A stretch of DNA of 10,609 bases from Candidatus Riflebacteria bacterium HGW-Riflebacteria-2 (GCA_002839435.1 PGYA01000016.1:64001-74609); one strand, 5' to 3'; positions 1-10,609 are shown, counted from the first letter of the stretch. A program made the numbers and translations. The notes: generated by a model from the letters alone, not told the origin.

Positions 1-134
1 TTGAGCATTCGCAGTTTTTCGAACCTACCGTCATGATTTCATCCTGGAACGAATGGACAGAAGGCCATTACCTTGAGCCCGACAAAAAGCACGGCTACGC
101 CTGGCTCGAAGCGGTAAGGTCGGTGCACGGCTGA
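1..134 (+). CDS. 3' end of an upstream gene, 5'-partial: C-terminal fragment of a glycan-processing protein resembling the WbsX / GH99-like family
   Basis: Frame 3 is open from the window edge and reads EHSQFFEPTVMISSWNEWTEGHYLEPDKKHGYAWLEAVRSVHG, ending at TGA 132-134. The SWNEWTEGHY block resembles the conserved NEW(G/T)EG C-terminal motif of WbsX-like glycosyltransferase / GH99-like proteins. The stop overlaps the next ATG (TGATG). Confidence 0.45.
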   Translation, partial: EHSQFFEPTVMISSWNEWTEGHYLEPDKKHGYAWLEAVRSVHG

Positions 135-1027
135 TGGATAAGAGATGGCCATTCTTTACGGTAGATGTCGAGCTGACAAATATCTGTGAGCAGAACTGCC
201 GTTTCTGCCCACGTGAAAAGCTGACGCGGCCGTCCGGCTTTATCGACACACAACTGTTGCACAGCATTATGCGTCAGCTCGCTGAAATTGGCTCACGCGT
301 GACCTTTTGTGGAATGGGCAACCCTTTGCTGCACCCGCAATGGGCTGAAATATGCACAATCTGTCATGCCAGCGGCGTCAAATACGGCCTTACCATTCAG
401 GCGCCGGCTCTTATCGAAGCCAATATTTCAAAAATCTGCGAACTCAGGCCGGCGTTTATCGAGGTTTCGTTTCCCAGCATCGATTCCGGGCACTTCGCAA
501 GAATTTATCCGGGCGAGAATCTTGCCAGTTCTCTCAATTCATTGAACCGGCTGGTTGCCGCGCGCGGTTCAGCGCGAGGAATCATCATAACAGCCGTAAG
601 AACCACCGACGACCCGACCGAACCGGCAGAGACCCTTGCTTTCTGGCAACAGAAAGGACTGCTGGTAAGAATACAACAATGCCATTCGCGCGGCGGCAAC
701 CTGCATGGGCAGACAACGACAGAAGCGCGCCGAATAACCAGTTGCGGCCTGTTCGCGACGCACTCGTTCATCACCTGGCAGGGCCTTCTGCTCGCCTGTT
801 GCCACGATCTCGCCGGCGCCACTGCTGTTGCCGATCTCAGGCAACTCTCGCTCGACCAGGCCGCCGCCGCTAAAATCGAAATTCTGCAAAAGCCAATGCC
901 CTGGCCGATCTGCGCAAACTGCGATGAGCCGGCGGCAATCCGCCCCCTGCCCGATCGCCCTTTCCCCGCAACAGAAAAAGCGCGAAGCCGCTATTTAAAA
1001 CGCCTCTGCGCTTCAGATCAGTCGTAA
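134..1027 (+). CDS. Radical SAM protein with a cysteine-rich SPASM/twitch-like C-terminal region
   Basis: 297-aa ORF. Canonical CxxxCxxC (TNICEQNCRFCP) sits at residues ~18-25. A GGE-like SAM-binding motif (FCGMGNPLL) is present. The C-terminal half has seven Cys (QQCH, SCG, ACCHD, PICANCDE) arranged like an auxiliary Fe-S cluster domain. Translationally coupled to the upstream gene by a TGATG overlap. Confidence 0.8.
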   Translation: MDKRWPFFTVDVELTNICEQNCRFCPREKLTRPSGFIDTQLLHSIMRQLAEIGSRVTFCGMGNPLLHPQWAEICTICHASGVKYGLTIQAPALIEANISKICELRPAFIEVSFPSIDSGHFARIYPGENLASSLNSLNRLVAARGSARGIIITAVRTTDDPTEPAETLAFWQQKGLLVRIQQCHSRGGNLHGQTTTEARRITSCGLFATHSFITWQGLLLACCHDLAGATAVADLRQLSLDQAAAAKIEILQKPMPWPICANCDEPAAIRPLPDRPFPATEKARSRYLKRLCASDQS

Positions 1028-3388: not shown

Positions 3389-3976
3389 TTACAGCAGCGC
3401 TTTTAAAATCAGTGAACGGGCCTGGCTGATATTTCGCGAGACAGCTGGTGGAAAGGGCAAAACGAATACCTGCTCGGCCGTGTCGCTGACGAAGCGGATG
3501 ACGGCGCCGTTTAGCTCCCTGCCCTGCATGGCTTCGGCGAAAAAGAAGCTTTCCATATCGACCAGGCTGGCGTCGTATTTTGCGGCCAGTTGTGCGCGGT
3601 CGTCTCTGGTGATTGCCGGCTGGTCGACAGTTACAACTGCTGCCGGCGGCAGGTCGGCCGGGGCGGGCAGCTCAAGCTGACGACAAGCGTAAAAAAATCT
3701 GTTGCAACAGAACAGCTGGCCCACCTGCAGTTCGGGCGCGAGCGCTCCGGCTGCGCCAAATAGGATTATGCGTCGATAGCTGGCCTGTGTCAGTTCTCTA
3801 TCGAGCAGCGCAAACAAAGGGTCGCCGCCGGCGGCATTGGCTGTGACCAGCCGGCCACCTTTAAAAAACCAGCTTGCAGCGTCTGATTGCCGGCAATCTG
3901 GCAGGATAGCGGCCAGCAGCCTGGCTTCGGCTTTGAACGGCGCCAAAATAAGAGTCTGCGGGTCTGTCGGGCTCAT
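3389..3976 (-). CDS. MTA/SAH-nucleosidase (PNP_UDP_1) family protein, short futalosine-hydrolase-like form; candidate 5'-deoxyadenosine nucleosidase
   Basis: 195 aa. The segments ILFGAAGAL, VVTVDQPAITRDD, SLVDMESFFFAEA and AVIRFVSDTAEQ align by eye with the E. coli Pfs motifs INTGSAGGL, VSGDAFINGS, AVEMEATAIA and VRAISDVADQ. This includes the catalytic Glu in the (V/D)ME context and the Asp of the SD motif. The start overlaps the upstream gene stop by 4 nt (ATGA). Confidence 0.8.
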   Translation of the reverse strand: MSPTDPQTLILAPFKAEARLLAAILPDCRQSDAASWFFKGGRLVTANAAGGDPLFALLDRELTQASYRRIILFGAAGALAPELQVGQLFCCNRFFYACRQLELPAPADLPPAAVVTVDQPAITRDDRAQLAAKYDASLVDMESFFFAEAMQGRELNGAVIRFVSDTAEQVFVLPFPPAVSRNISQARSLILKALL

Positions 3977-5022
3977 TTCTGCAGACTCCGGTCAAGCATC
4001 TTTTTGAGATCCGCGCTGCCGAAAGTTGTGTTTTTTAGGCGTTCCCAGACTTCGGGGGTTTCCATGCACATGTAGATCGGCACGTCGACGAAGTGTTTCT
4101 GCAGACCGGCGCGGGCAAAATTGTAAATCTGCTCGCGGAAAGGCCTGAAATATCTGATCTTACCGTCAGTCGAAGGGTAAAATTCTTCGGCGAGAATGCC
4201 GGTGTCAGGGTGATATTTTTCGACGTTTTCCTGAAACCCTTTTGGGAAGCGAAAAGTGCCCAGGGAAATCCAGTTGATCTTAAGTCCGTGCAGATATTCG
4301 TGCATAAGCGCGAATACTTCTGAATAGCGTTCCTGCCAGTTCTGCAAGGGCAGTAACGGATCGAAATGAAACGCCAGCGCGCAGCCTTTTTCTCGGGCAG
4401 CCGAGGCTGCTGCATTCAGGCGCTCACGCAGTGAGGCCGCGCCATGTTCGAGGCGATCGATGTATTCCTGCGGATTCAGCGAAAAGGCCAGAGTTACGTG
4501 GCGCGCATCTTTTGCCTGCATTATTGCCTTTATATCAGAGCTTTTGCTTTTGACTTCGAGCGTGAAATCAGGCATTCCGGCGGTCCATTCAATGATCGCA
4601 GCGTTGAGCGGGAAAATTCCTTCGAGCGCGAGCGGATCGCCGAACTGGCCGGTGCCAAGTCTGATTGGCCCGCTGATGCGTTCGCGCAGGTCGATGATTT
4701 CTCGGCGGCAGTCTTCCCAGTTCAAGAAAAGTGTTACATCGCCGGCGCCGGTATAATTCTGGATTATGCAGTATTCGCACTCGAACGGGCAGCCCATCCC
4801 CCACTCCACTACCCAGTAACCGCAGCAGACGCTGCCTTTCTGACCCGGACATGGTTTTACAAACGCCCCGCGATTGAGAGTGAGCAGCAGACCATCGCCT
4901 GGATGCTGTTCGCCGCTGACTTCATGCCGCTGCTCAAATTCAATCAGGCTCTCGATCTGTTTTGCCAGCGGCAGATCCTTGACCCGCTCATCAACATAGA
5001 GGTTTTTGAAGCTCAGATTCAT
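3973..5022 (-). CDS. Radical SAM protein of the spore-photoproduct-lyase (SplB/SPL) family
   Basis: 349 aa. The N-terminal NLYVDERVKDLPLAKQIESL matches the SPL N-terminus VYIEPRALEYPLGKELKDKF of B. subtilis SplB. The radical SAM triad GCPFECEYC (C78-x3-C82-x2-C85) sits where SplB has CMGHCHYC. A second block, FSLNPQEYIDRLEHGAASLRERLNAAASAAREKGCALAFHFDPL, matches SplB FSINADYVIKNFEPGTSPLDKRIEAAVKVAKAGYPLGFIVAPI. ATG start with a 2-nt spacer after the ParB-like gene stop. Confidence 0.85.
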   Translation of the reverse strand: MNLSFKNLYVDERVKDLPLAKQIESLIEFEQRHEVSGEQHPGDGLLLTLNRGAFVKPCPGQKGSVCCGYWVVEWGMGCPFECEYCIIQNYTGAGDVTLFLNWEDCRREIIDLRERISGPIRLGTGQFGDPLALEGIFPLNAAIIEWTAGMPDFTLEVKSKSSDIKAIMQAKDARHVTLAFSLNPQEYIDRLEHGAASLRERLNAAASAAREKGCALAFHFDPLLPLQNWQERYSEVFALMHEYLHGLKINWISLGTFRFPKGFQENVEKYHPDTGILAEEFYPSTDGKIRYFRPFREQIYNFARAGLQKHFVDVPIYMCMETPEVWERLKNTTFGSADLKKMLDRSLQK

Positions 5023-5024
5023 TA

Positions 5025-5855
5025 TTAAAGCTCTTCGACGGCCGCGAAAATTGCATCGACTGCGGCCTGAGCTTCGGTTAAACGGCCGCTGTGCCGGCGG
5101 GTCAGATTGCAGGTCAGCTGCATGCCGGGTTTAGAAAACGTCTGGTCGATTTTTATGGTTATTCCTGGCGGCAGCGGGTTTTGTTCGAGGGCACGCGCGA
5201 ATTTGTCGAGCGCATCAGTTCTGCGCGGCTGCGCCAGGCGCTGCAGGTTTTCGAGTGCTTCGGCAGCATTGTTGCCGGGTAGTTTTTCTGGTAGAACTCT
5301 CTTTCGCTGGGCCTGCCGCAAAAACATCGCGATATTGCGCTTTTCAGAGACCGTGCCGGGCATGGTCAGCAGATCAAAGGCAAAAAGCTTCATGTCATCA
5401 CCAAGATGTGCAAGCTCTCGCCATATATTGAGCGGCAGATTATGCTTGCCACATTCAGGATGACAGAGCAGATTGCACCCGATAAAGCGCAGGGCAAGAC
5501 GTAGCTGGGGCGAGTCGGTGCATCCGGCCAGCTTCAACATTTCAGCATGATCTGATGGCGCACAGCTGGCAAATGCGGCTGTCAGCTCGCAAGCACTCAA
5601 CTCTCGATGACTGTTCAATTGAACAAACAGCAACGCCGGCAACCCGGTTGCTTCAATACAGGGCACACTGCTGTGCCCTAGTTCTTTAAGGGCAAGAAGC
5701 CGCCGGTGCCCGTCACAAACAGTGTTCTGAGCGATAACCAGTGGTTGTAAAACACCATTTTCTCTGATGCTGCACAACAATTTCTCTTCAACCGGCGCCG
5801 TGAATGAATCAATCAGTGGCATCAATTCATTTATCTGAACTTCAATAATTTTCAT
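5025..5855 (-). CDS. ParB/Srx-like nuclease-domain (ParBc) protein with a C-terminal extension of unknown function
   Basis: 276 aa with an ATG start. The N-terminal ~90 aa (LIDSFTAPVEEKLLCSIRENGVLQPLVIAQNTVCDGHRRLLALKELG) shows the ParB-like nuclease domain pattern (hydrophobic-DGHHR-l-A-k-lG). The remaining ~180 aa are Cys/His-containing with no motif I recognise. First gene of the three-gene operon. Confidence 0.7.
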   Translation of the reverse strand: MKIIEVQINELMPLIDSFTAPVEEKLLCSIRENGVLQPLVIAQNTVCDGHRRLLALKELGHSSVPCIEATGLPALLFVQLNSHRELSACELTAAFASCAPSDHAEMLKLAGCTDSPQLRLALRFIGCNLLCHPECGKHNLPLNIWRELAHLGDDMKLFAFDLLTMPGTVSEKRNIAMFLRQAQRKRVLPEKLPGNNAAEALENLQRLAQPRRTDALDKFARALEQNPLPPGITIKIDQTFSKPGMQLTCNLTRRHSGRLTEAQAAVDAIFAAVEEL

Positions 5856-5863
5856 GATACCGC

Positions 5864-5892
5864 ATTGTAACGCATACCGGCATCACCATCAA
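5864..5892 (-). promoter_or_regulatory. Candidate sigma70-like promoter for the ParB-like/SPL-like/MTAN-like operon; would give a near-leaderless transcript
   Basis: On the minus strand the sequence reads TTGATG-N17-TACAAT, with the -10 hexamer ending 8 nt before the ATG at 5855. No Shine-Dalgarno precedes this ATG. This assumes sigma70-type promoter rules apply to this organism. Confidence 0.25.
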
Positions 5893-6286
5893 GCAGCATA
5901 AGAGAGTTCATGGTATAACCCGCCCGCCGGCGACAGCTCGGCGGTCTGTTCTGCTCTAGTGGCCGTTACTCAACTAATTCGATCATAATCGAACTATTTG
6001 CATAAATTGTAGTTTAATTCTTTTATGATCAAATTTAATGAGCAGATCTTGTATTGGCAGATGAACCTGCTTGATTTTCTTCTTTAGCAGATAGATCCTG
6101 GAGAGCCGCGGTCTGAATTGGTCGCTGCGCAAAAAAACATACATGAAAGTTGGCTGCATCATATTCTTTTGTACGTATTTTCACTTACAGGCTGTTTGCG
6201 ACTTTTATGTAAGAATTATAGTAGTTCAGATGTAATACCTGTATGTGATTTTGGCTATGATAAGAGAAATGAATCCTCTCTGAATG

Positions 6287-6316
6287 GAGCTGCCTGCGCG
6301 GGCAGCTTCTTTTTCT
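6287..6316 (+). terminator. Canonical Rho-independent terminator (GC-rich hairpin plus T-tract) on the plus strand with no annotated upstream gene
   Basis: The stem agctgcc (6288-6294) pairs with ggcagct (6301-6307) across a 6-nt loop tgcgcg, and g6287:t6308 adds a wobble pair. The stem is followed immediately by tcttttttct. The reverse complement has no U-tract, so orientation is plus. Confidence 0.5.
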
Positions 6317-6372
6317 GAGCTATGATCCACTATTTTTAAATTTTGAGCTGTTTTGCAGCATTGCCCGCATTT

Positions 6373-6482: not shown

Positions 6483-7067
6483 TTGAATAGTCTAAGTTGC
6501 GAAAACTTAAAAGAGATTCTGAGTCGTCTCAGCGAATTGATCAGCCTTGAGACAAACCAGTGCTTTGAACTGGTTGTCTGCGGCGGTTCGGCTCTGATAG
6601 CACTTGGTTTGATTGAGCGAACTACGCGTGACATCGATGTTGTCGCTGTTGTAAAAGGCAATTTATTTGCGGACCCCGAACCCTTGCCGGCAGAGATGAT
6701 TAAAGCCGCTGCCAGAATTGCTCAATATTCAGATTTACCGGCTGACTGGTTGAACACGGGGCCTGCCGATATCTTCAGAATGGGGTTGCCAGATGGCTTT
6801 GGCAACAGGCTCGTTACCTGGCATGTCGGCAGGAACCTTGTCATACATTTTATCAGCCGGCTGGATCAGATTCATTTCAAACTCTACGCAGCAGTCGATC
6901 GCGGGGGATATCACATAACAGATCTCATGGCTCTCAACCCATGTGACAATGAAATTCTGCAGGCTGCGAGATGGGCACGAACTCATGATGTCTCTGATGG
7001 TTTCAAAGAAATGCTTGAATTCCTTTTAAAGGAACTGGGTTATGAAAGAATCATTGCTGAATTATAA
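6483..7067 (+). CDS. Minimal nucleotidyltransferase-fold (Pol-beta superfamily) protein; candidate toxin/antitoxin or defence component
   Basis: 194 aa. The NTase signature hG[GS]...D-x-D is present in ELVVCGGSALIALGLIERTTRDIDVVAV. The C-terminal helical part (HFKLYAAVDRGGYHITDLMAL) is typical of small NTase toxin/antitoxin proteins. The only in-frame start near the 5' end is TTG at 6483 and there is no clear RBS. The 3' end overlaps the next gene by 26 nt. Confidence 0.55.
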   Translation: MNSLSCENLKEILSRLSELISLETNQCFELVVCGGSALIALGLIERTTRDIDVVAVVKGNLFADPEPLPAEMIKAAARIAQYSDLPADWLNTGPADIFRMGLPDGFGNRLVTWHVGRNLVIHFISRLDQIHFKLYAAVDRGGYHITDLMALNPCDNEILQAARWARTHDVSDGFKEMLEFLLKELGYERIIAEL

Positions 7068-8076
7068 AAACCAGCTGCTGGAAAAGATGCTAAAACTTCT
7101 CTGGTCGGGCTGGGCACAGCTTGGCGTTGCAGGTTATAAACCAGTCCGCTGGAAAAGGGTTATCGACATCGAAGCCTTGATTCTGACCACATGCTTCTGG
7201 GGAAGATACGATCAACGGCTTTTTGATGAAATGCTGTCCTGGTTGCTGGCAAACGAAAGGTTTGTCAATATTCAGCGGCTCCAGACCATCATAAAAAAAG
7301 AGACTTTTCATGAACCGGGACTTCTTGGGCCAATAAGCCGCAAACTCTGCAGAAAAAATCGTACCCCGAAATGGCGTGGAATAGCAGGAAAACTGGAAAG
7401 ACAGCAGGCAGTATTACAGCCTGAAAAGCTGTTTTTGTTTCCTGATAATAAACCATTGCCTGTTATCGGCGCAGCCGACGATGATTTTGCTGAGTGCGGC
7501 TTTCTGCGACTGCCCTTTATAGATCGTCAGCTGTCGACAGACTTTACAACAGGGGTGGCGGCAACGCTGCAGCTACAGTTGCGGGCTTTTTTCGGAGTAT
7601 GTTCGCGAGCTGAAATCATGCTTGCATTTTTTATCAACAATCAGGCGAGTATAAGTGATATCGCTGCCAGCTCTTATTATTCATGGAAATCTATTCAGGA
7701 AGCTCTTTTTGAAATGTCTCATTCTGGCATTGTGAGCCATCCTGCGTCTAAGCGGGAAAGGCGTTACTATCTTGCCTCAGAAAACTGGACAAAACTGTTT
7801 ATTGGCCAGGAAACGGACTGCCCCGAAAAATTCCACTGGTGCAAATTTTTCAGCGCCATGGAAATTCTCTGGCAAAAGGTCACTAACCCTGCCTTCGGCA
7901 ATTTATCAGAGAAAAGCATGGATATTGAAATTGCAGATCTGGTAAACCAACATCTGCAAAGCCTGTTAACAGCAGCCGACGAAAATTGGCGGGTTTCTTC
8001 TCCCGCAACATCCTGTGAAAACTTCCTTGCAACTTTCTCGGCCTTTATAATCACTCAGCTTAAACAGCTTCAGTAA
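7042..8076 (+). CDS. Hypothetical protein (344 aa) overlapping the NTase-fold gene; putative cognate partner
   Basis: Long open frame with an ATG start (MKESLLNYKNQLLEKML...). Overlaps the preceding gene by 26 nt. GC appears lower than the flanks. I recognise no catalytic motif. Confidence 0.55.
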   Translation: MKESLLNYKNQLLEKMLKLLWSGWAQLGVAGYKPVRWKRVIDIEALILTTCFWGRYDQRLFDEMLSWLLANERFVNIQRLQTIIKKETFHEPGLLGPISRKLCRKNRTPKWRGIAGKLERQQAVLQPEKLFLFPDNKPLPVIGAADDDFAECGFLRLPFIDRQLSTDFTTGVAATLQLQLRAFFGVCSRAEIMLAFFINNQASISDIAASSYYSWKSIQEALFEMSHSGIVSHPASKRERRYYLASENWTKLFIGQETDCPEKFHWCKFFSAMEILWQKVTNPAFGNLSEKSMDIEIADLVNQHLQSLLTAADENWRVSSPATSCENFLATFSAFIITQLKQLQ

Positions 8077-8292: not shown

Positions 8293-10609
8293 TCAGGGGC
8301 GAACCACGCGAAACCCTTTCCAGTTGGAAGCGGAAGCCATGCCCGCGCTATAACGACTGGGGAAGTAGCTGGGGTTGCTGCCGCCGCTGCCGCCACGACA
8401 GACCCGTCCTGAAGAACCAGTTAAAGCGCCGTGATAGTCATAGACAGTATTGCTTGGGTAGTTTTCAAAAAAGTCCCAGCACCATTCAAATACGTTACCG
8501 CTCATGTCATACAGACCCAGTTCATTCGCCAGTTTTGTTCCAACCGGGTGGGTCTTGAAGCTTGAATTATCACTAGACCAGGCATAATCGCCGACGGTAT
8601 TACTGCTATTGCTGCCAGCAAATGGCTTTGCATAACCAGTTAAATTAACTCCACCGCTCACGGCACCGGGTTGACTGTCCTGGTCAGCGCCCATTGCTGC
8701 CCACATCCATTCCATTTCGGTCGGCAGGCGATAACCATTAGCCGACCAGTTGCAGGTCGCCGCATCCCAGTCGGTATTAGTAGTGGTCGGTATTGCTGCG
8801 TAGGTAAGCGTCGAAAAGTCAACGCTATTAACTTCGTAGACAGGCGTCAGGCCTTCGGCAATACTGAGTTTGTTACAGAACGCGATCGCGCAATACCAGT
8901 TTGTGAATTGCACCGGGTCGGTGACGCCATTTGAAGTCTCTGTCACGCTTGGGTCAGATCCCATAATTGCACTGAACTGCGTTCTGGTAATCTCATGCTG
9001 GCTCATTCTGAAGCCTTTGGTGATTATTGAAATATTCGCCTCATCAGAATCCCGCTGAAACGACCCCGCTGGCACATACTTCAACGTCCCGATAGTTGCA
9101 GATGAGTAGTCACCCCATATCTGCTTGGCAGAGCTGTAAACGGTGCCGCTGTAGCTGTCTTTGCCGGCGGCGGCAACACGAACGTATTTACCGCTAGCTG
9201 TTTTGGCCAGATCAACGACATAAGTATTGGTGGTGACACCTGCAATATCGGCCCAACCGGCCGAACCGTCATCGCTGACCTGCCACTGATAAGTAACGGC
9301 GGCATAACTCGGGGTCAGTGCCCCGGCGGTCAGTGTCTGACCACTCTTTGGCAAACCAGTAATGCCACCAATCTCAGTCACCGGCACAATCACTGAGCGA
9401 ACCACGCGAAACCCGAAGCCGTTGCCCTGGTAGTTCGGGCTGCTCCTGTTACGGAAGGCCACGGTAGCTTTGTCCGCGGCAAAGGCCCAGCTACCGCCGC
9501 GCATCACACGGTCCGAGCCAGTTCCAGCACCACGGTAATCGGAGTTAGAATTCTCGGGGTAAATGTTATACCAGTCCCAGCAGAATTCCCAGGCGTTGCC
9601 ACTCATATCAGAGATGCCAAGTTCATTCGCCTGTTTTGTTCCAGCAGGGTGAGTCTTGCTGCTAGCATTATCAAAATACCATGCATAATCTCCAACTGCC
9701 CCCCCCATGCCCTCGCCAGCATACGCTTTATTGTATCCGGTAGTATTGGTTGCACCAGGATTGCCTGTGTCAGCGCCCATTGCTGCCCACATCCATTCCA
9801 TTTCGGTTGGCAATCGGTAACCATCTGCAGCCCAGTTGCAGGTCGCAGCGTTCCAGGTTGGGTTGTCACTTGTCGGCACTGCACCCCAGACAGACGGATC
9901 GGTTGAGCCGCTGATAGTGTAGACCGGAGTCAGGCCTTCGGCAATGCTCAGTTTGTTACAGAATGCAATCGCATGATACCAGTTAGCCATCTGCACAGGG
10001 TCGGAGACTCCGTTCGAATAGCTTGTATTACTCGGATCAGTACCCATAATCACATTGAACTGAGCCCTGGTTATCTCATGCGCGCTCATGCTGAACGCCG
10101 AAACAAATGATGTGTTTGCCGCGGTTGCGTCACGCTGAAAGGTTCCGGCGGTAACACTTACCATGGTCGGCATTCCCAGAATCTTTTCGGCAGCACTGAA
10201 AACCTCACCACAATAAGACCCATTACCTGTAGCAACAAGCCGGACATATTGCCCTGCAGCTGATTTGGCAGGATCAACTTCATAGCTGGCTGTAACGGCA
10301 CCGGATATATCAAGCCATGCGTTAACGCCATCATTACTTACCTGCCATCTATAATCAACCGTAGCCCCAACAGGAGTTATTTCTCCAGCTGTCAGCGTCT
10401 GCCCGCTCATCGGAATACCCGTAATCGCACCTATTGCGGTCACCGGTTCAGCGGTGGCTGCAAAAACAATTGAGACCAAACCCGAGTTGGCAGCATTGGT
10501 AGAAGTTCCGCCGGCAACTGTAAAGAAGTTTTCAGCAACGCCAGTCAGCGTAAAGCCGGCCTTCGGCGTAAGAGTTACTGTCGCAGTGTAAACTGTGCCT
10601 GCAGCAAAG
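8293..10609 (-). CDS. Large secreted/surface-type protein, 5'-partial (runs off the window end): Big-like segment plus 2 x [Ig-like domain + FGE-sulfatase (SUMF1/EgtB/PvdO-type) domain]
   Basis: The ORF-track start at 10479 is a TTG. The frame stays open to 10609 (…FAAGTVYTATVTLTPKAGFTLTGVAENFFTVAGGTSTNAANSGLVS IVF…), so the true start lies beyond the window. There are two FGE-domain copies with the hallmarks GYRLPTEMEWMWAAMGAD, DMSGN(A/V)(W/F)E(F/W)CWD, RGGS and GFRVVR. Each is preceded by an Ig-like module (ITG(I/L)P(M/K)SGQTLTAG...Y(R/Q)WQVS(N/D)DG). Confidence 0.85.
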   Translation of the reverse strand, partial: FAAGTVYTATVTLTPKAGFTLTGVAENFFTVAGGTSTNAANSGLVSIVFAATAEPVTAIGAITGIPMSGQTLTAGEITPVGATVDYRWQVSNDGVNAWLDISGAVTASYEVDPAKSAAGQYVRLVATGNGSYCGEVFSAAEKILGMPTMVSVTAGTFQRDATAANTSFVSAFSMSAHEITRAQFNVIMGTDPSNTSYSNGVSDPVQMANWYHAIAFCNKLSIAEGLTPVYTISGSTDPSVWGAVPTSDNPTWNAATCNWAADGYRLPTEMEWMWAAMGADTGNPGATNTTGYNKAYAGEGMGGAVGDYAWYFDNASSKTHPAGTKQANELGISDMSGNAWEFCWDWYNIYPENSNSDYRGAGTGSDRVMRGGSWAFAADKATVAFRNRSSPNYQGNGFGFRVVRSVIVPVTEIGGITGLPKSGQTLTAGALTPSYAAVTYQWQVSDDGSAGWADIAGVTTNTYVVDLAKTASGKYVRVAAAGKDSYSGTVYSSAKQIWGDYSSATIGTLKYVPAGSFQRDSDEANISIITKGFRMSQHEITRTQFSAIMGSDPSVTETSNGVTDPVQFTNWYCAIAFCNKLSIAEGLTPVYEVNSVDFSTLTYAAIPTTTNTDWDAATCNWSANGYRLPTEMEWMWAAMGADQDSQPGAVSGGVNLTGYAKPFAGSNSSNTVGDYAWSSDNSSFKTHPVGTKLANELGLYDMSGNVFEWCWDFFENYPSNTVYDYHGALTGSSGRVCRGGSGGSNPSYFPSRYSAGMASASNWKGFRVVRP
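8296..9393 (-). repeat. Tandem duplication unit B (Ig-like + FGE domain, residues 363-728 of the visible ORF)
   Basis: Copy offset from unit A is about 1.09 kb. Long near-identical nucleotide runs support this, e.g. 8689-8721 and 9777-9809 (gcccattgctgcccacatccattccatttcggt), and 8850-8880 against 9939-9969. Confidence 0.7.
9394..10452 (-). repeat. Tandem duplication unit A (Ig-like + FGE domain, residues ~11-362 of the visible ORF)
   Basis: The two units are colinear at the protein level and match at most positions, with long identical blocks such as LTPVY, CNKLSIAEGLTPVY, GYRLPTEMEWMWAAMGAD and KTHP(A/V)GTK(Q/L)ANELG. The unit boundary falls exactly after GFRVVRS. Confidence 0.7.

Follow-up and report, generated by a model that had tools for sequence, protein, structure and literature searches.

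A window of 10,609 nucleotides (the whole stretch of DNA analysed) from Candidatus Riflebacteria bacterium HGW-Riflebacteria-2 (GCA_002839435.1 PGYA01000016.1:64001-74609) encodes a protein of the spore photoproduct lyase (SPL) family of radical S-adenosylmethionine (SAM) enzymes, hereafter the target. Its gene is the middle one of a packed three-gene unit on the minus strand, with a ParB-like gene upstream and a nucleosidase gene downstream. Spore photoproduct (SP) lyase is the textbook case of radical SAM DNA repair with a protein radical relay and, to our knowledge, the sole characterised member of its fold. The target is not an authentic SP lyase. The picture is of an enzyme with the SPL fold whose radical-generating site is intact and whose nucleotide-like phosphate site is retained, but whose base-recognition pocket is rebuilt and whose set of cysteines is different. 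The reading that we favour, tentatively, is an SPL-type radical reaction that is assisted by the ParB-like protein, consumes SAM and acts on DNA, at a lesion or base that is not the classical spore photoproduct.

The SPL fold of the target is evident both in profile searches and in the predicted structure. Against the Pfam SPL family (PF20903) the protein scores 60.6 bits with a cut-off of 27, and an alignment of 117 sequences of its clade matches the authentic-SPL alignment over the full length with a probability of 100% in hhalign. The AlphaFold2 model, made from an alignment of 84 sequences, has a predicted local distance difference test (pLDDT) score of 95.6. It matches the Geobacillus thermodenitrificans SPL (Gt) structures 4FHC, 4FHE and 4RH0 with template-modelling (TM) scores of 0.76-0.80 (E ~1e-21, ~348 columns), and the next-best radical SAM structure reaches a TM score of at most 0.48. 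The entry 4RH0 is an engineered GtSPL, C140A/S76C, that mimics the clostridial type of the enzyme. The target has 1781 relatives at E<=1e-5. The annotations of the SPL-like clade are all automatic ones: 'radical SAM protein', 'DNA photolyase' or 'spore photoproduct lyase'. The radical-generating site is conserved throughout the clade: the cluster ligands C78, C82 and C85 and the SAM-binding residues K160 (Lys174 in GtSPL) and S181 (Ser195) are invariant, and the CxxxCxYC motif, including Y84, is found in 117/117 members. The Fe-S triad and the tyrosine within CxYC, which the first-pass annotation had read from the sequence, are thus present in the codons, in all four alignments described below and across the clade.

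To map the relay residues, we used phmmer against the GtSPL chains 4FHC/4FHD, the clade profile against the same chains, hhalign of the 117-sequence clade alignment against authentic SPL, and a MAFFT L-INS-i alignment of 51 full-length family representatives; the Gt numbering was checked on the Geobacillus SPL in our set (P0153). All four alignments give the same pairing, of GCPFECEYCI with GCMGHCHYCY and of RLGTGQFGD with RFEAACTSD. Y84 therefore corresponds to Y96 of Gt and Y97 of Bacillus subtilis (Bs), I86 stands at the position of Gt Y98/Bs Y99, and Q126 stands at that of Gt C140/Bs C141. In SPL, the proposed relay runs from Cys141 through Tyr99 to 5'-deoxyadenosine (5'-dA), aided by Tyr97, and regenerates SAM (PMC5368176). 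Position 86 is Ile or Val in 104 of the best 120 homologues of the target and Tyr in two, and the corresponding position 98 is Tyr in all 27 authentic SPL representatives of the L-INS-i alignment. Position 126 in the same 120 homologues is Glu (66), Gln (37) or His (16), and Cys in none. The by-eye placement of Ile at SplB Tyr99 and of Gln at SplB Cys141 in the first-pass annotation is thus reproduced, and both replacements are traits of the clade. The nearest Cys that it pointed to, about 21 residues upstream in WEDCRRE, is indeed there as C105, but it is conserved in only 52% of the clade.

Three other cysteines, which the first-pass annotation did not mention, are conserved far more strictly. 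C58 (FxKPCPG), C67 (CCGY) and C319 (Y-x-C-M-E) each occur in 117/117 or 116/117 sequences of the clade. C67 lies inside a six-residue insertion relative to SPL and C319 in a C-terminal extension of about 30 residues, both of which authentic SPL lacks. C58 aligns with Gt S76, exactly in L-INS-i and within one residue in hhalign. In clostridial SPLs, an alternative Cys at this position is the proposed H-atom donor (PMC3467042, PMC5368176), and several clostridial representatives read 'PCP' at position 76, as does KPCPG of the target. By this positional match C58 is a candidate H-atom donor. It had been suspected that the target lacks parts of the radical relay; this stands for the Bacillus-type Cys and the second Tyr, which are absent, but the loss of a donor Cys is not established, because the invariant C58 aligns with the clostridial donor position. 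The accompanying caveat that some clostridial SPLs also lack Cys141 agrees with our alignment, where the Clostridium type has Ala or Ser at position 140 together with C76.

Next, we compared the substrate pocket of the target with that of authentic SPLs. A search of 1.84 billion cluster representatives with Geobacillus SPL returned 1588 members of the SPL family as a whole (clusters at 50% identity, E<=1e-3), of which the full-length ones were aligned. The authentic enzymes fall into two types, a Bacillus type with S76, Y98, C140, R193 and E268, and a Clostridium type with C76 in F-x-x-C-(R/K/P)-P, Y98, A/S140, R193 and E268. The target has A179 and S253 in place of R193 and E268, which every authentic representative carries; across the clade the two positions read Ala/Ser and Ser, respectively. 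In the SP complex, Arg193 and Glu268 form hydrogen bonds with O4 of the 5'-dihydrothymine (PMC3467042). Since these two readers of the dihydrothymine are replaced, the substrate is likely to be other than the classical spore photoproduct. The residues that contact the remainder of the substrate are kept at >=98%: R258 (Arg273) and K288 (Lys309) at the bridging phosphate, and Y317 (Tyr339) at N3/O4 of the base.

Phylogeny and profile scores place the clade outside the authentic enzymes. The target scores 67.9 bits with TIGR04070 (SplB), whose cut-off is 400, and 23.9 bits with TIGR03886 (lyase_spl_fam), whose cut-off is 437.55. The mean identity of the clade to authentic SPLs is 21-23%, as compared with 36% between the Bacillus and Clostridium types. 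Strict monophyly of the residue-defined groups failed, with fragmentary or intermediate sequences nesting among them, and a split test was used in its place for the comparison of authentic SPLs with the clade. In 40/40 neighbour-joining bootstraps, 30 clade members are split from 27 authentic SPLs, and the ParB-linked subclade with the motif WVVEWG is monophyletic in 30/30. The host is a Candidatus Riflebacteria metagenome-assembled genome, as are the closest loci; the ParB-like protein encoded upstream of the target is 100% identical to a hypothetical protein of Candidatus Riflebacteria bacterium HGW-Riflebacteria-2. By the names of organisms and sources, the hosts are anaerobes of aquifers, digesters and the rumen. 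We infer that they live in the dark, form no spores and meet no ultraviolet (UV) light, an ecology in which the classical spore photoproduct is not an expected substrate. A further SPL-like gene in a non-sporulating anaerobe was seen in Fusobacterium vincentii, where an unannotated SPL-family protein (NZ_CP084075.1, 1192651-1193595) is 23% identical to the target (E 4e-18); the 2.1-Mb replicon is chromosome-sized, though filed among plasmids.

Set beside its two closest known relatives, the target combines shared and divergent features. With Bacillus/Geobacillus SplB (4FHC/4FHD, TIGR04070) it has in common CxxxCxYC with the first Tyr, the SAM-binding Lys and Ser, and the equivalents of Arg273, Lys309 and Tyr339. 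However, at about 21% identity it has Gln for Cys140, Ile for Tyr98 and Ala/Ser for Arg193/Glu268, a shorter hairpin with different tip residues, an acidic rather than basic isoelectric point (pI) and a score far below the cut-off, as well as the Cys67 insertion, the Cys319 extension, a non-sporulating host and a ParB-like gene in place of splA upstream. The clostridial enzymes, such as C. acetobutylicum SPL, share with the target the lack of Cys140 and a Cys76 in the F-x-x-C-(R/K/P)-P loop, but they keep Tyr98, Arg193 and Glu268, carry Ala or Ser at 140 and not Glu, Gln or His, have neither the CC insertion nor the Cys319 extension, are strongly basic (median pI 9.2) and group with the Bacillus SPLs.

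It is therefore very unlikely that the target is an ordinary clostridial-type SP lyase that uses the donor Cys at 76 and repairs SP-like thymine dimers in a non-sporulating host. The full-length SPL fold, C58 in the shared 'PCP' context, the retained equivalents of Y96, R273, K309 and Y339 and the labels 'spore photoproduct lyase' and 'DNA photolyase' given to relatives would all suit such an enzyme. But Y98, R193 and E268 are present in 27/27 authentic SPLs and read I/V, A/S and S in the clade; the TIGR04070 score, the bootstrap split, the identity of ~22%, the clade-specific insertion, extension and extra invariant cysteines, and the ParB-like gene upstream, with no splA, in hosts taken to be non-sporulating and shielded from UV light all stand against it. 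No alignment places a Cys and both Tyr at the relay positions, and the protein does not cluster with authentic SP lyases, the combination that the first-pass annotation had named as refuting its suspicion. The distinct SPL-like clade of non-sporulating bacteria that it envisaged is borne out by scores, phylogeny and host names. Its further suggestion, of chemistry other than canonical SP repair, survives in modified form: such chemistry is likely from the loss of R193/E268, the non-sporulating hosts and the gene context.

The gene context was examined by tblastn and clustering of open reading frames at 33 non-redundant loci. The conserved ParB-like and nucleosidase neighbours, outside the coordinates to which the first-pass annotation refers, provide the most telling evidence. 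In the window the three genes are tightly packed (Table 1): the stop codon of the ParB-like gene lies 2 nt before the ATG of the SPL-like gene, whose TGA overlaps the ATG of the nucleosidase gene (ATGA). The ParB-like gene is directly upstream at 29/29 loci of the target subclade with upstream sequence, and in addition on metagenomic contigs L036-L038; among these occurrences are one on a contig from Thermoanaerobaculia (L005) and one from Acidobacteriota (L035). The nucleosidase gene is directly downstream at 15/33 surveyed loci, and also on L038. In a second subclade (P0092, ~34% identical to the target), the SPL-like gene is preceded by a different, longer ParB_N protein; a metagenome scan found it directly upstream and on the same strand at 58/59 loci with enough upstream sequence. 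On L005 (3826-7608), genes for a HAD-family hydrolase and an LpxL-like lipid A-type acyltransferase precede the ParB, SPL and nucleosidase genes, and the overlapping or nearly abutting genes suggest a five-gene operon.

Table 1. Features of the window that bear on the three-gene cassette and the second radical SAM gene.
Feature	Position (nt)	Strand	Basis
ParB/Noc/KorB-like protein of 276 aa; motifs resembling box II (DGHRR) and box III (LNSHRE)	5025-5855	-	
SPL-family radical SAM protein, 349 aa, uncharacterised non-SPL clade	3973-5022	-	Pfam, hhalign, AlphaFold model
CxxxCxYC radical SAM cluster motif (C78, C82, Y84, C85)	4768-4791	-	codons read directly
C78 (tgc); C85 (tgc)	4791-4789; 4770-4768	-	codons read directly
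I86 (ata), directly after the motif	4767-4765	-	
Q126 (cag), site of the Bacillus-type H-donor Cys (Gt C140/Bs C141)	4647-4645	-	
KPCPG...CC segment: C58, then six-residue clade-specific insertion ending in C66/C67	4822-4851	-	
C58 (tgt); C67	4851-4849; 4824-4822	-	L-INS-i, hhalign, conservation counts
C319, two residues after Y317 (Gt Y339), opening the ~30-residue C-terminal extension	4066-4068	-	
MTAN/MqnB/HpnG-like nucleosidase, 195 aa	3389-3976	-	Pfam PNP_UDP_1
Promoter-like TTGATG-17-TACAAT, 8 nt before the ParB-like ATG	5864-5892	-	consensus scan
Second radical SAM protein, BtrN-like, of 297 aa; C terminus Cys-rich and SPASM/twitch-like	134-1027	+	

The ParB-like protein of the target subclade has a ParB/Srx N-terminal domain. 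A 32-sequence profile of the family aligns to B. subtilis ParB (6SDK) with an E value of 5e-6, from the N-terminal domain into the helix-turn-helix (HTH) domain. Residues D48-G49-H50-R51-R52 (C-D-G-H-R-R, corresponding to GxRR) and N81, R84 and E85 (L-N-S-H-R-E, corresponding to ENxxR) are invariant or nearly so. The AlphaFold model (pLDDT 90.5) shows a C-terminal beta-beta-alpha element, and the top Foldseek matches are Noc, ParB, pNOB8 ParB and KorB over 220-255 columns (E 2e-5 to 1e-3), with low TM scores of 0.27-0.42; matches to sulfiredoxin, SerK and SbnI cover ~77 columns at E values of 0.03-0.2. The second ParB family (~320-350 residues) carries the motifs GFRR and ENLTTR, and it matches ParB/Noc structures with E values of 1.8e-13 to 1e-6, partly via the DNA-binding domain. 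Both partner families thus look like ParB/Noc/KorB-type proteins and not Srx-type kinases, and binding of CTP and DNA is predicted for them. With the chromosomal ParB/Noc/KorB CTPase clamps, the partner here shares the ParB/Srx domain, the beta-beta-alpha element and a similar length, and it has putative GxRR/ENxxR-like motifs and a predicted helical HTH-type middle domain; unlike them, it has DGHRR, has no ParA neighbour and always stands beside an SPL-like gene.

A precedent for such a pairing exists in phages. In a subclass of phage thymine dioxygenases, the 5mYOX enzymes, a cognate ParB-like activator is needed specifically on double-stranded DNA, and cognate pairs co-diverge (PNAS 2026, PMC13229309). 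There, as here, a ParB-fold gene adjoins the gene of an enzyme from a family that acts on the C5-methyl group of thymine in DNA. The 5mYOX proteins, however, are phage-encoded, O2-dependent Fe(II)/2-oxoglutarate dioxygenases whose ParB lacks an obvious DNA-binding domain, whereas the target is an anaerobic, chromosomal radical SAM enzyme with no relatives found in viral contigs and a partner with a predicted ParB-type middle domain, and its coupling to that partner is suggested by adjacency. Searches of the accessible literature library returned no description of a ParB protein paired with a radical SAM or SPL enzyme, and a 2025 survey of the ParB-CTPase fold mentions neither radical SAM nor SPL.

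The ParB-like protein may instead be a mere KorB/Noc-type regulator of the operon, as SplA is in Bacillus splAB, with the enzyme acting alone; we consider this unlikely. In the Bacillus records, the regulator gene splA stands before authentic splB, a middle domain of the HTH type is predicted for the ParB-like protein, and some SPL-like subclades have no adjacent ParB gene. A perfect palindrome, TTCGAT-N4-ATCGAA, lies at 5975-5990 (within 5966-6005), upstream of the promoter and ~120 nt upstream of the ParB-like start. It is also found at locus L008 and in degenerate form at L024, and it could be a site for the ParB-like protein. Yet it is not kept at L007 or L010, and simple regulation sits poorly with a near-universal adjacency that holds over very deep divergence and with two ParB paralogues, with the 2-nt gap between the genes and with the conservation of the putative NTP-pocket motifs in both ParB families. 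As for the promoter itself, the block CTTG(A/C)TGG...TA(C/G)AAT..G.CATCATG is kept in five related loci. The -10 box TACAAT is so close to the ParB-like ATG that there is no room for a Shine-Dalgarno sequence (window 5853-5892, L007, L008, L010, L024), and the operon mRNA may be leaderless or nearly so.

The third protein of the cassette scores 42.9 bits with Pfam PNP_UDP_1 against a cut-off of 25.1, and it stays below the cut-offs of all of the NCBIfam nucleosidase models (HpnG, 53.9 against 187.1; futalosine hydrolase, 34.4 against 124.7; MTAN, 28.2 against 169). A 13-sequence profile of the family matches the H. pylori MTAN/aminodeoxyfutalosine nucleosidase with an E value of 1.7e-12 and Chlamydia CT263 with an E value of 1e-4. 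Two catalytic residues are invariant, the Glu of VDME (E142), which binds ribose, and the Asp of SD (D165), which protonates adenine; these motifs align to VEME and SD of H. pylori MTAN. Judged by these residues, the protein is plausibly a hydrolase for 5'-substituted adenosines. Similar pairings are known: HpnH/HpnG take part in making the hopanoid side chain, the futalosine pathway uses MqnE/MqnB, and Pfs/MTAN clears 5'-deoxyadenosine for BioB and LipA. As in these systems, a PNP_UDP_1 nucleosidase with the MTAN Glu and Asp is encoded with a radical SAM enzyme; unlike HpnH and MqnE, the radical SAM partner here is of the SPL family, and the nucleosidase scores below every cut-off. A variant futalosine pathway, with two radical SAM genes and an MqnB-like gene, was considered and rejected, as neither radical SAM protein of the window matched the MqnE or MqnC models. 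MqnA and MqnD, moreover, are not known to be ParB-fold proteins.

Taken together, these features lead us to propose that the target and the ParB/Noc-like protein encoded upstream work together as a two-protein unit. The [4Fe-4S]/SAM site, with the SPL SAM ligands K160 and S181 evident in sequence and model, can generate the 5'-deoxyadenosyl (5'-dA) radical. The ParB-like protein, with its putative GxRR- and ENxxR-type motifs and its predicted ParB-type middle domain, would hold or open duplex DNA and present a site to the enzyme, and the radical would abstract hydrogen from a nucleotide or dinucleotide that is flipped out. C58, possibly helped by C67 and C319, would then quench the product radical. 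Without a Tyr at 98/99 the return path from the thiyl radical to 5'-deoxyadenosine would be missing and SAM used stoichiometrically; SAM would most simply be a consumed co-substrate, because the second Tyr is lacking while a Cys at a donor position and the first Tyr are kept. The co-transcribed MTAN-like nucleosidase would hydrolyse the inhibitory 5'-deoxyadenosine, and the presence of a nucleosidase of this type fits SAM consumption. The near-universal ParB/Noc-like partner in two paralogous forms, the phosphate-binding residues and the SPL-specific domains point to DNA as the substrate.

Several observations weigh against this proposal. The ParB-like protein scores 23.1 bits in Pfam, below the cut-off of 26.3; in its box II, His takes the place of the Glu in GERR, and no box I can be recognised. 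Several subclades are 'solo', without an adjacent ParB gene (L004, L006, L040, L041). The median pI is 6.1 and 7.4 in the ParB-linked subclades, 8.7-9.2 in authentic SPLs and 8.8, 6.3 and 6.3 in the solo groups, so that the charge of the enzyme follows ParB linkage loosely and is weak evidence; for the acidic to neutral ParB-linked enzymes, a non-DNA substrate fits equally as well as dependence on a DNA-binding partner. The nucleosidase is missing at about half of the target-subclade loci, and the 80 loci of the second subclade all showed no such gene in the 4 kb around the SPL-like gene. What the analysis shows is fold, motifs and gene linkage, and the action on DNA, the donor role of C58, the stoichiometric use of SAM and the substrate of the nucleosidase are predictions from these; no signal at the DNA level ties the clade to DNA. 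The aminotransferase-WbsX-radical SAM operon of Riflebacteria described below, and the acyltransferase and HAD hydrolase on L005, would also fit small-molecule or glycan chemistry.

These points bear on a second type of reaction, in a small-molecule or lipid pathway, in which the 5'-dA radical adds to an olefin as in HpnH and MqnE, the nucleosidase leaves a ribosyl side chain, and the ParB/Srx-fold protein is an NTP-dependent enzyme of the kinase type (SerK, SbnI, sulfiredoxin). The affinities of the nucleosidase to HpnG and MqnB, the acidity of the ParB-linked enzymes (pI 6.1, as compared with 8.7-9.2 in SPLs) and the neighbours on L005 speak for such a pathway. HpnH and MqnE are not known to belong to the SPL family, however, and the target retains the N-terminal domain specific to SPL, the region of the beta-hairpin and the Arg and Lys that bind phosphate. 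In addition, two-domain DNA-binding proteins (ParB, Noc, KorB) are in both subclades a far better match to the ParB-like partner than single-domain kinases are, and the patchy occurrence of the nucleosidase tells against this pathway as well. We regard it as doubtful, with a low probability.

The second radical SAM gene of the window, rSAM2, raises a different possibility. Its product scores 46.3 bits with Pfam Radical_SAM, with a weak SPASM match, its best match in the Protein Data Bank is BtrN, and the L001 orthologue is 57% identical. In the window, a TPR gene and a YkuD/SH3 gene separate it from the cassette. In related genomes, rSAM2 is the last gene of an operon of a class-V aminotransferase, a WbsX glycosyltransferase and the radical SAM protein, and this operon adjoins the ParB-SPL pair at 15-16 loci, either co-directional and upstream or convergent and downstream (L001, L008, L009, L012, L014, L016-L022, L028 and L033, plus the more distant L029 and L037). 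It is not beside the cassette outside Riflebacteria-like genomes (L005, L035, L036, L038, L039). A link of rSAM2 with the cassette is possible. A cysteine desulfurase role for the class-V neighbour was rejected, since its best matches are transaminases of the pyridoxamine-pyruvate and AGXT/PhnW types.

On this basis the target could be the initiator of a DNA base modification, in which the 5'-dA radical activates a C-H bond of thymine or a 5-methylpyrimidine and the WbsX protein, the aminotransferase and the BtrN-like radical SAM protein elaborate the base. ParB proteins acting with a thymine-modifying enzyme ahead of downstream hypermodification genes are a precedent (PMC13229309). The chemistry of the SPL family centres on the methyl or allyl radical of thymine, the adjacency of the operon holds despite inversions, the operon resembles hypermodification gene sets, and the extra invariant cysteines could carry redox or covalent chemistry. 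Nevertheless, we judge base modification improbable. The absence of the operon from the cassette's side beyond Riflebacteria-like genomes means that the adjacency may be lineage synteny, the conserved H-donor-type Cys fits lesion reversal better, and modified bases are without support. PADLOC defence models gave no match for the three cassette genes, which have no restriction or defence context, and no close relative was found in the viral contigs, phage records and plasmids searched. The only 'phage' matches, MT835514 and MT835770, are ~25% identical and come from unverified contigs. A more specific form of base modification, in which oxygen-independent C-H activation of thymine (5-methylpyrimidine) by the ParB and SPL-like proteins feeds an anaerobic, bacterial, base-J-like hypermodification of the chromosome in Riflebacteria, would make the pair a radical SAM counterpart of the TET/JBP-type ParB-dependent thymine dioxygenases; we give it little credence.

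One of these 'phage' records deserves a description of its own. MT835514.1 (L042, 'Bacteriophage sp.') encodes bacterial housekeeping proteins (GreA, a cation efflux protein) beside the distant SPL-family protein, and the contig is probably bacterial. It also encodes a radical SAM-HhH protein adjoining a DUF4130 protein, a pair annotated as putative DNA modification or repair.

The rest of the window holds three further features. At 6483-8076 on the plus strand, a DUF6036/AbiEii-like nucleotidyltransferase gene (194 residues) overlaps by 26 nt the gene of a 344-residue protein without a family match. The GC content of this stretch is 37-49%, compared with ~52-59% elsewhere, and neither protein has a homologue in 35 related loci; for these reasons the two genes look like a strain-specific inserted pair of the toxin-antitoxin or defence type. 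Between the ParB-like and nucleotidyltransferase genes, a 630-bp AT-rich spacer contains a strong hairpin resembling an intrinsic terminator (6286-6319, plus strand; 10-bp stem with six GC pairs, followed by TTTTTCT), with no convincing plus-strand gene upstream of it; Rfam returned nothing here, and the Rfam and tRNA scans of the whole window were likewise empty. Lastly, a 728-residue protein encoded at 8293-10479 on the minus strand is built from two tandem halves with 57% identity over 365 residues, each with an Ig-like segment followed by an FGE-sulfatase (SUMF1-like) domain, which indicates an internal duplication.

In summary, the SPL fold and its radical chemistry are known, and the partner, the pocket and the operon logic of the target are new; its function is a prediction from sequence. 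It represents a branch of hundreds of sequences in non-sporulating anaerobes with a rebuilt pocket and different invariant cysteines, in which two subclades have a ParB-fold gene alongside at almost all of the loci checked. Should the two proteins indeed act together, this would add a second case, chemically unrelated to the first, of a ParB-like protein assisting an enzyme directed at DNA bases, and it would point to an unknown anaerobic DNA lesion or modification. The branch also offers a direct test of how much of the SPL relay, with its Cys position and second Tyr, is needed for SAM recycling as opposed to stoichiometric use.

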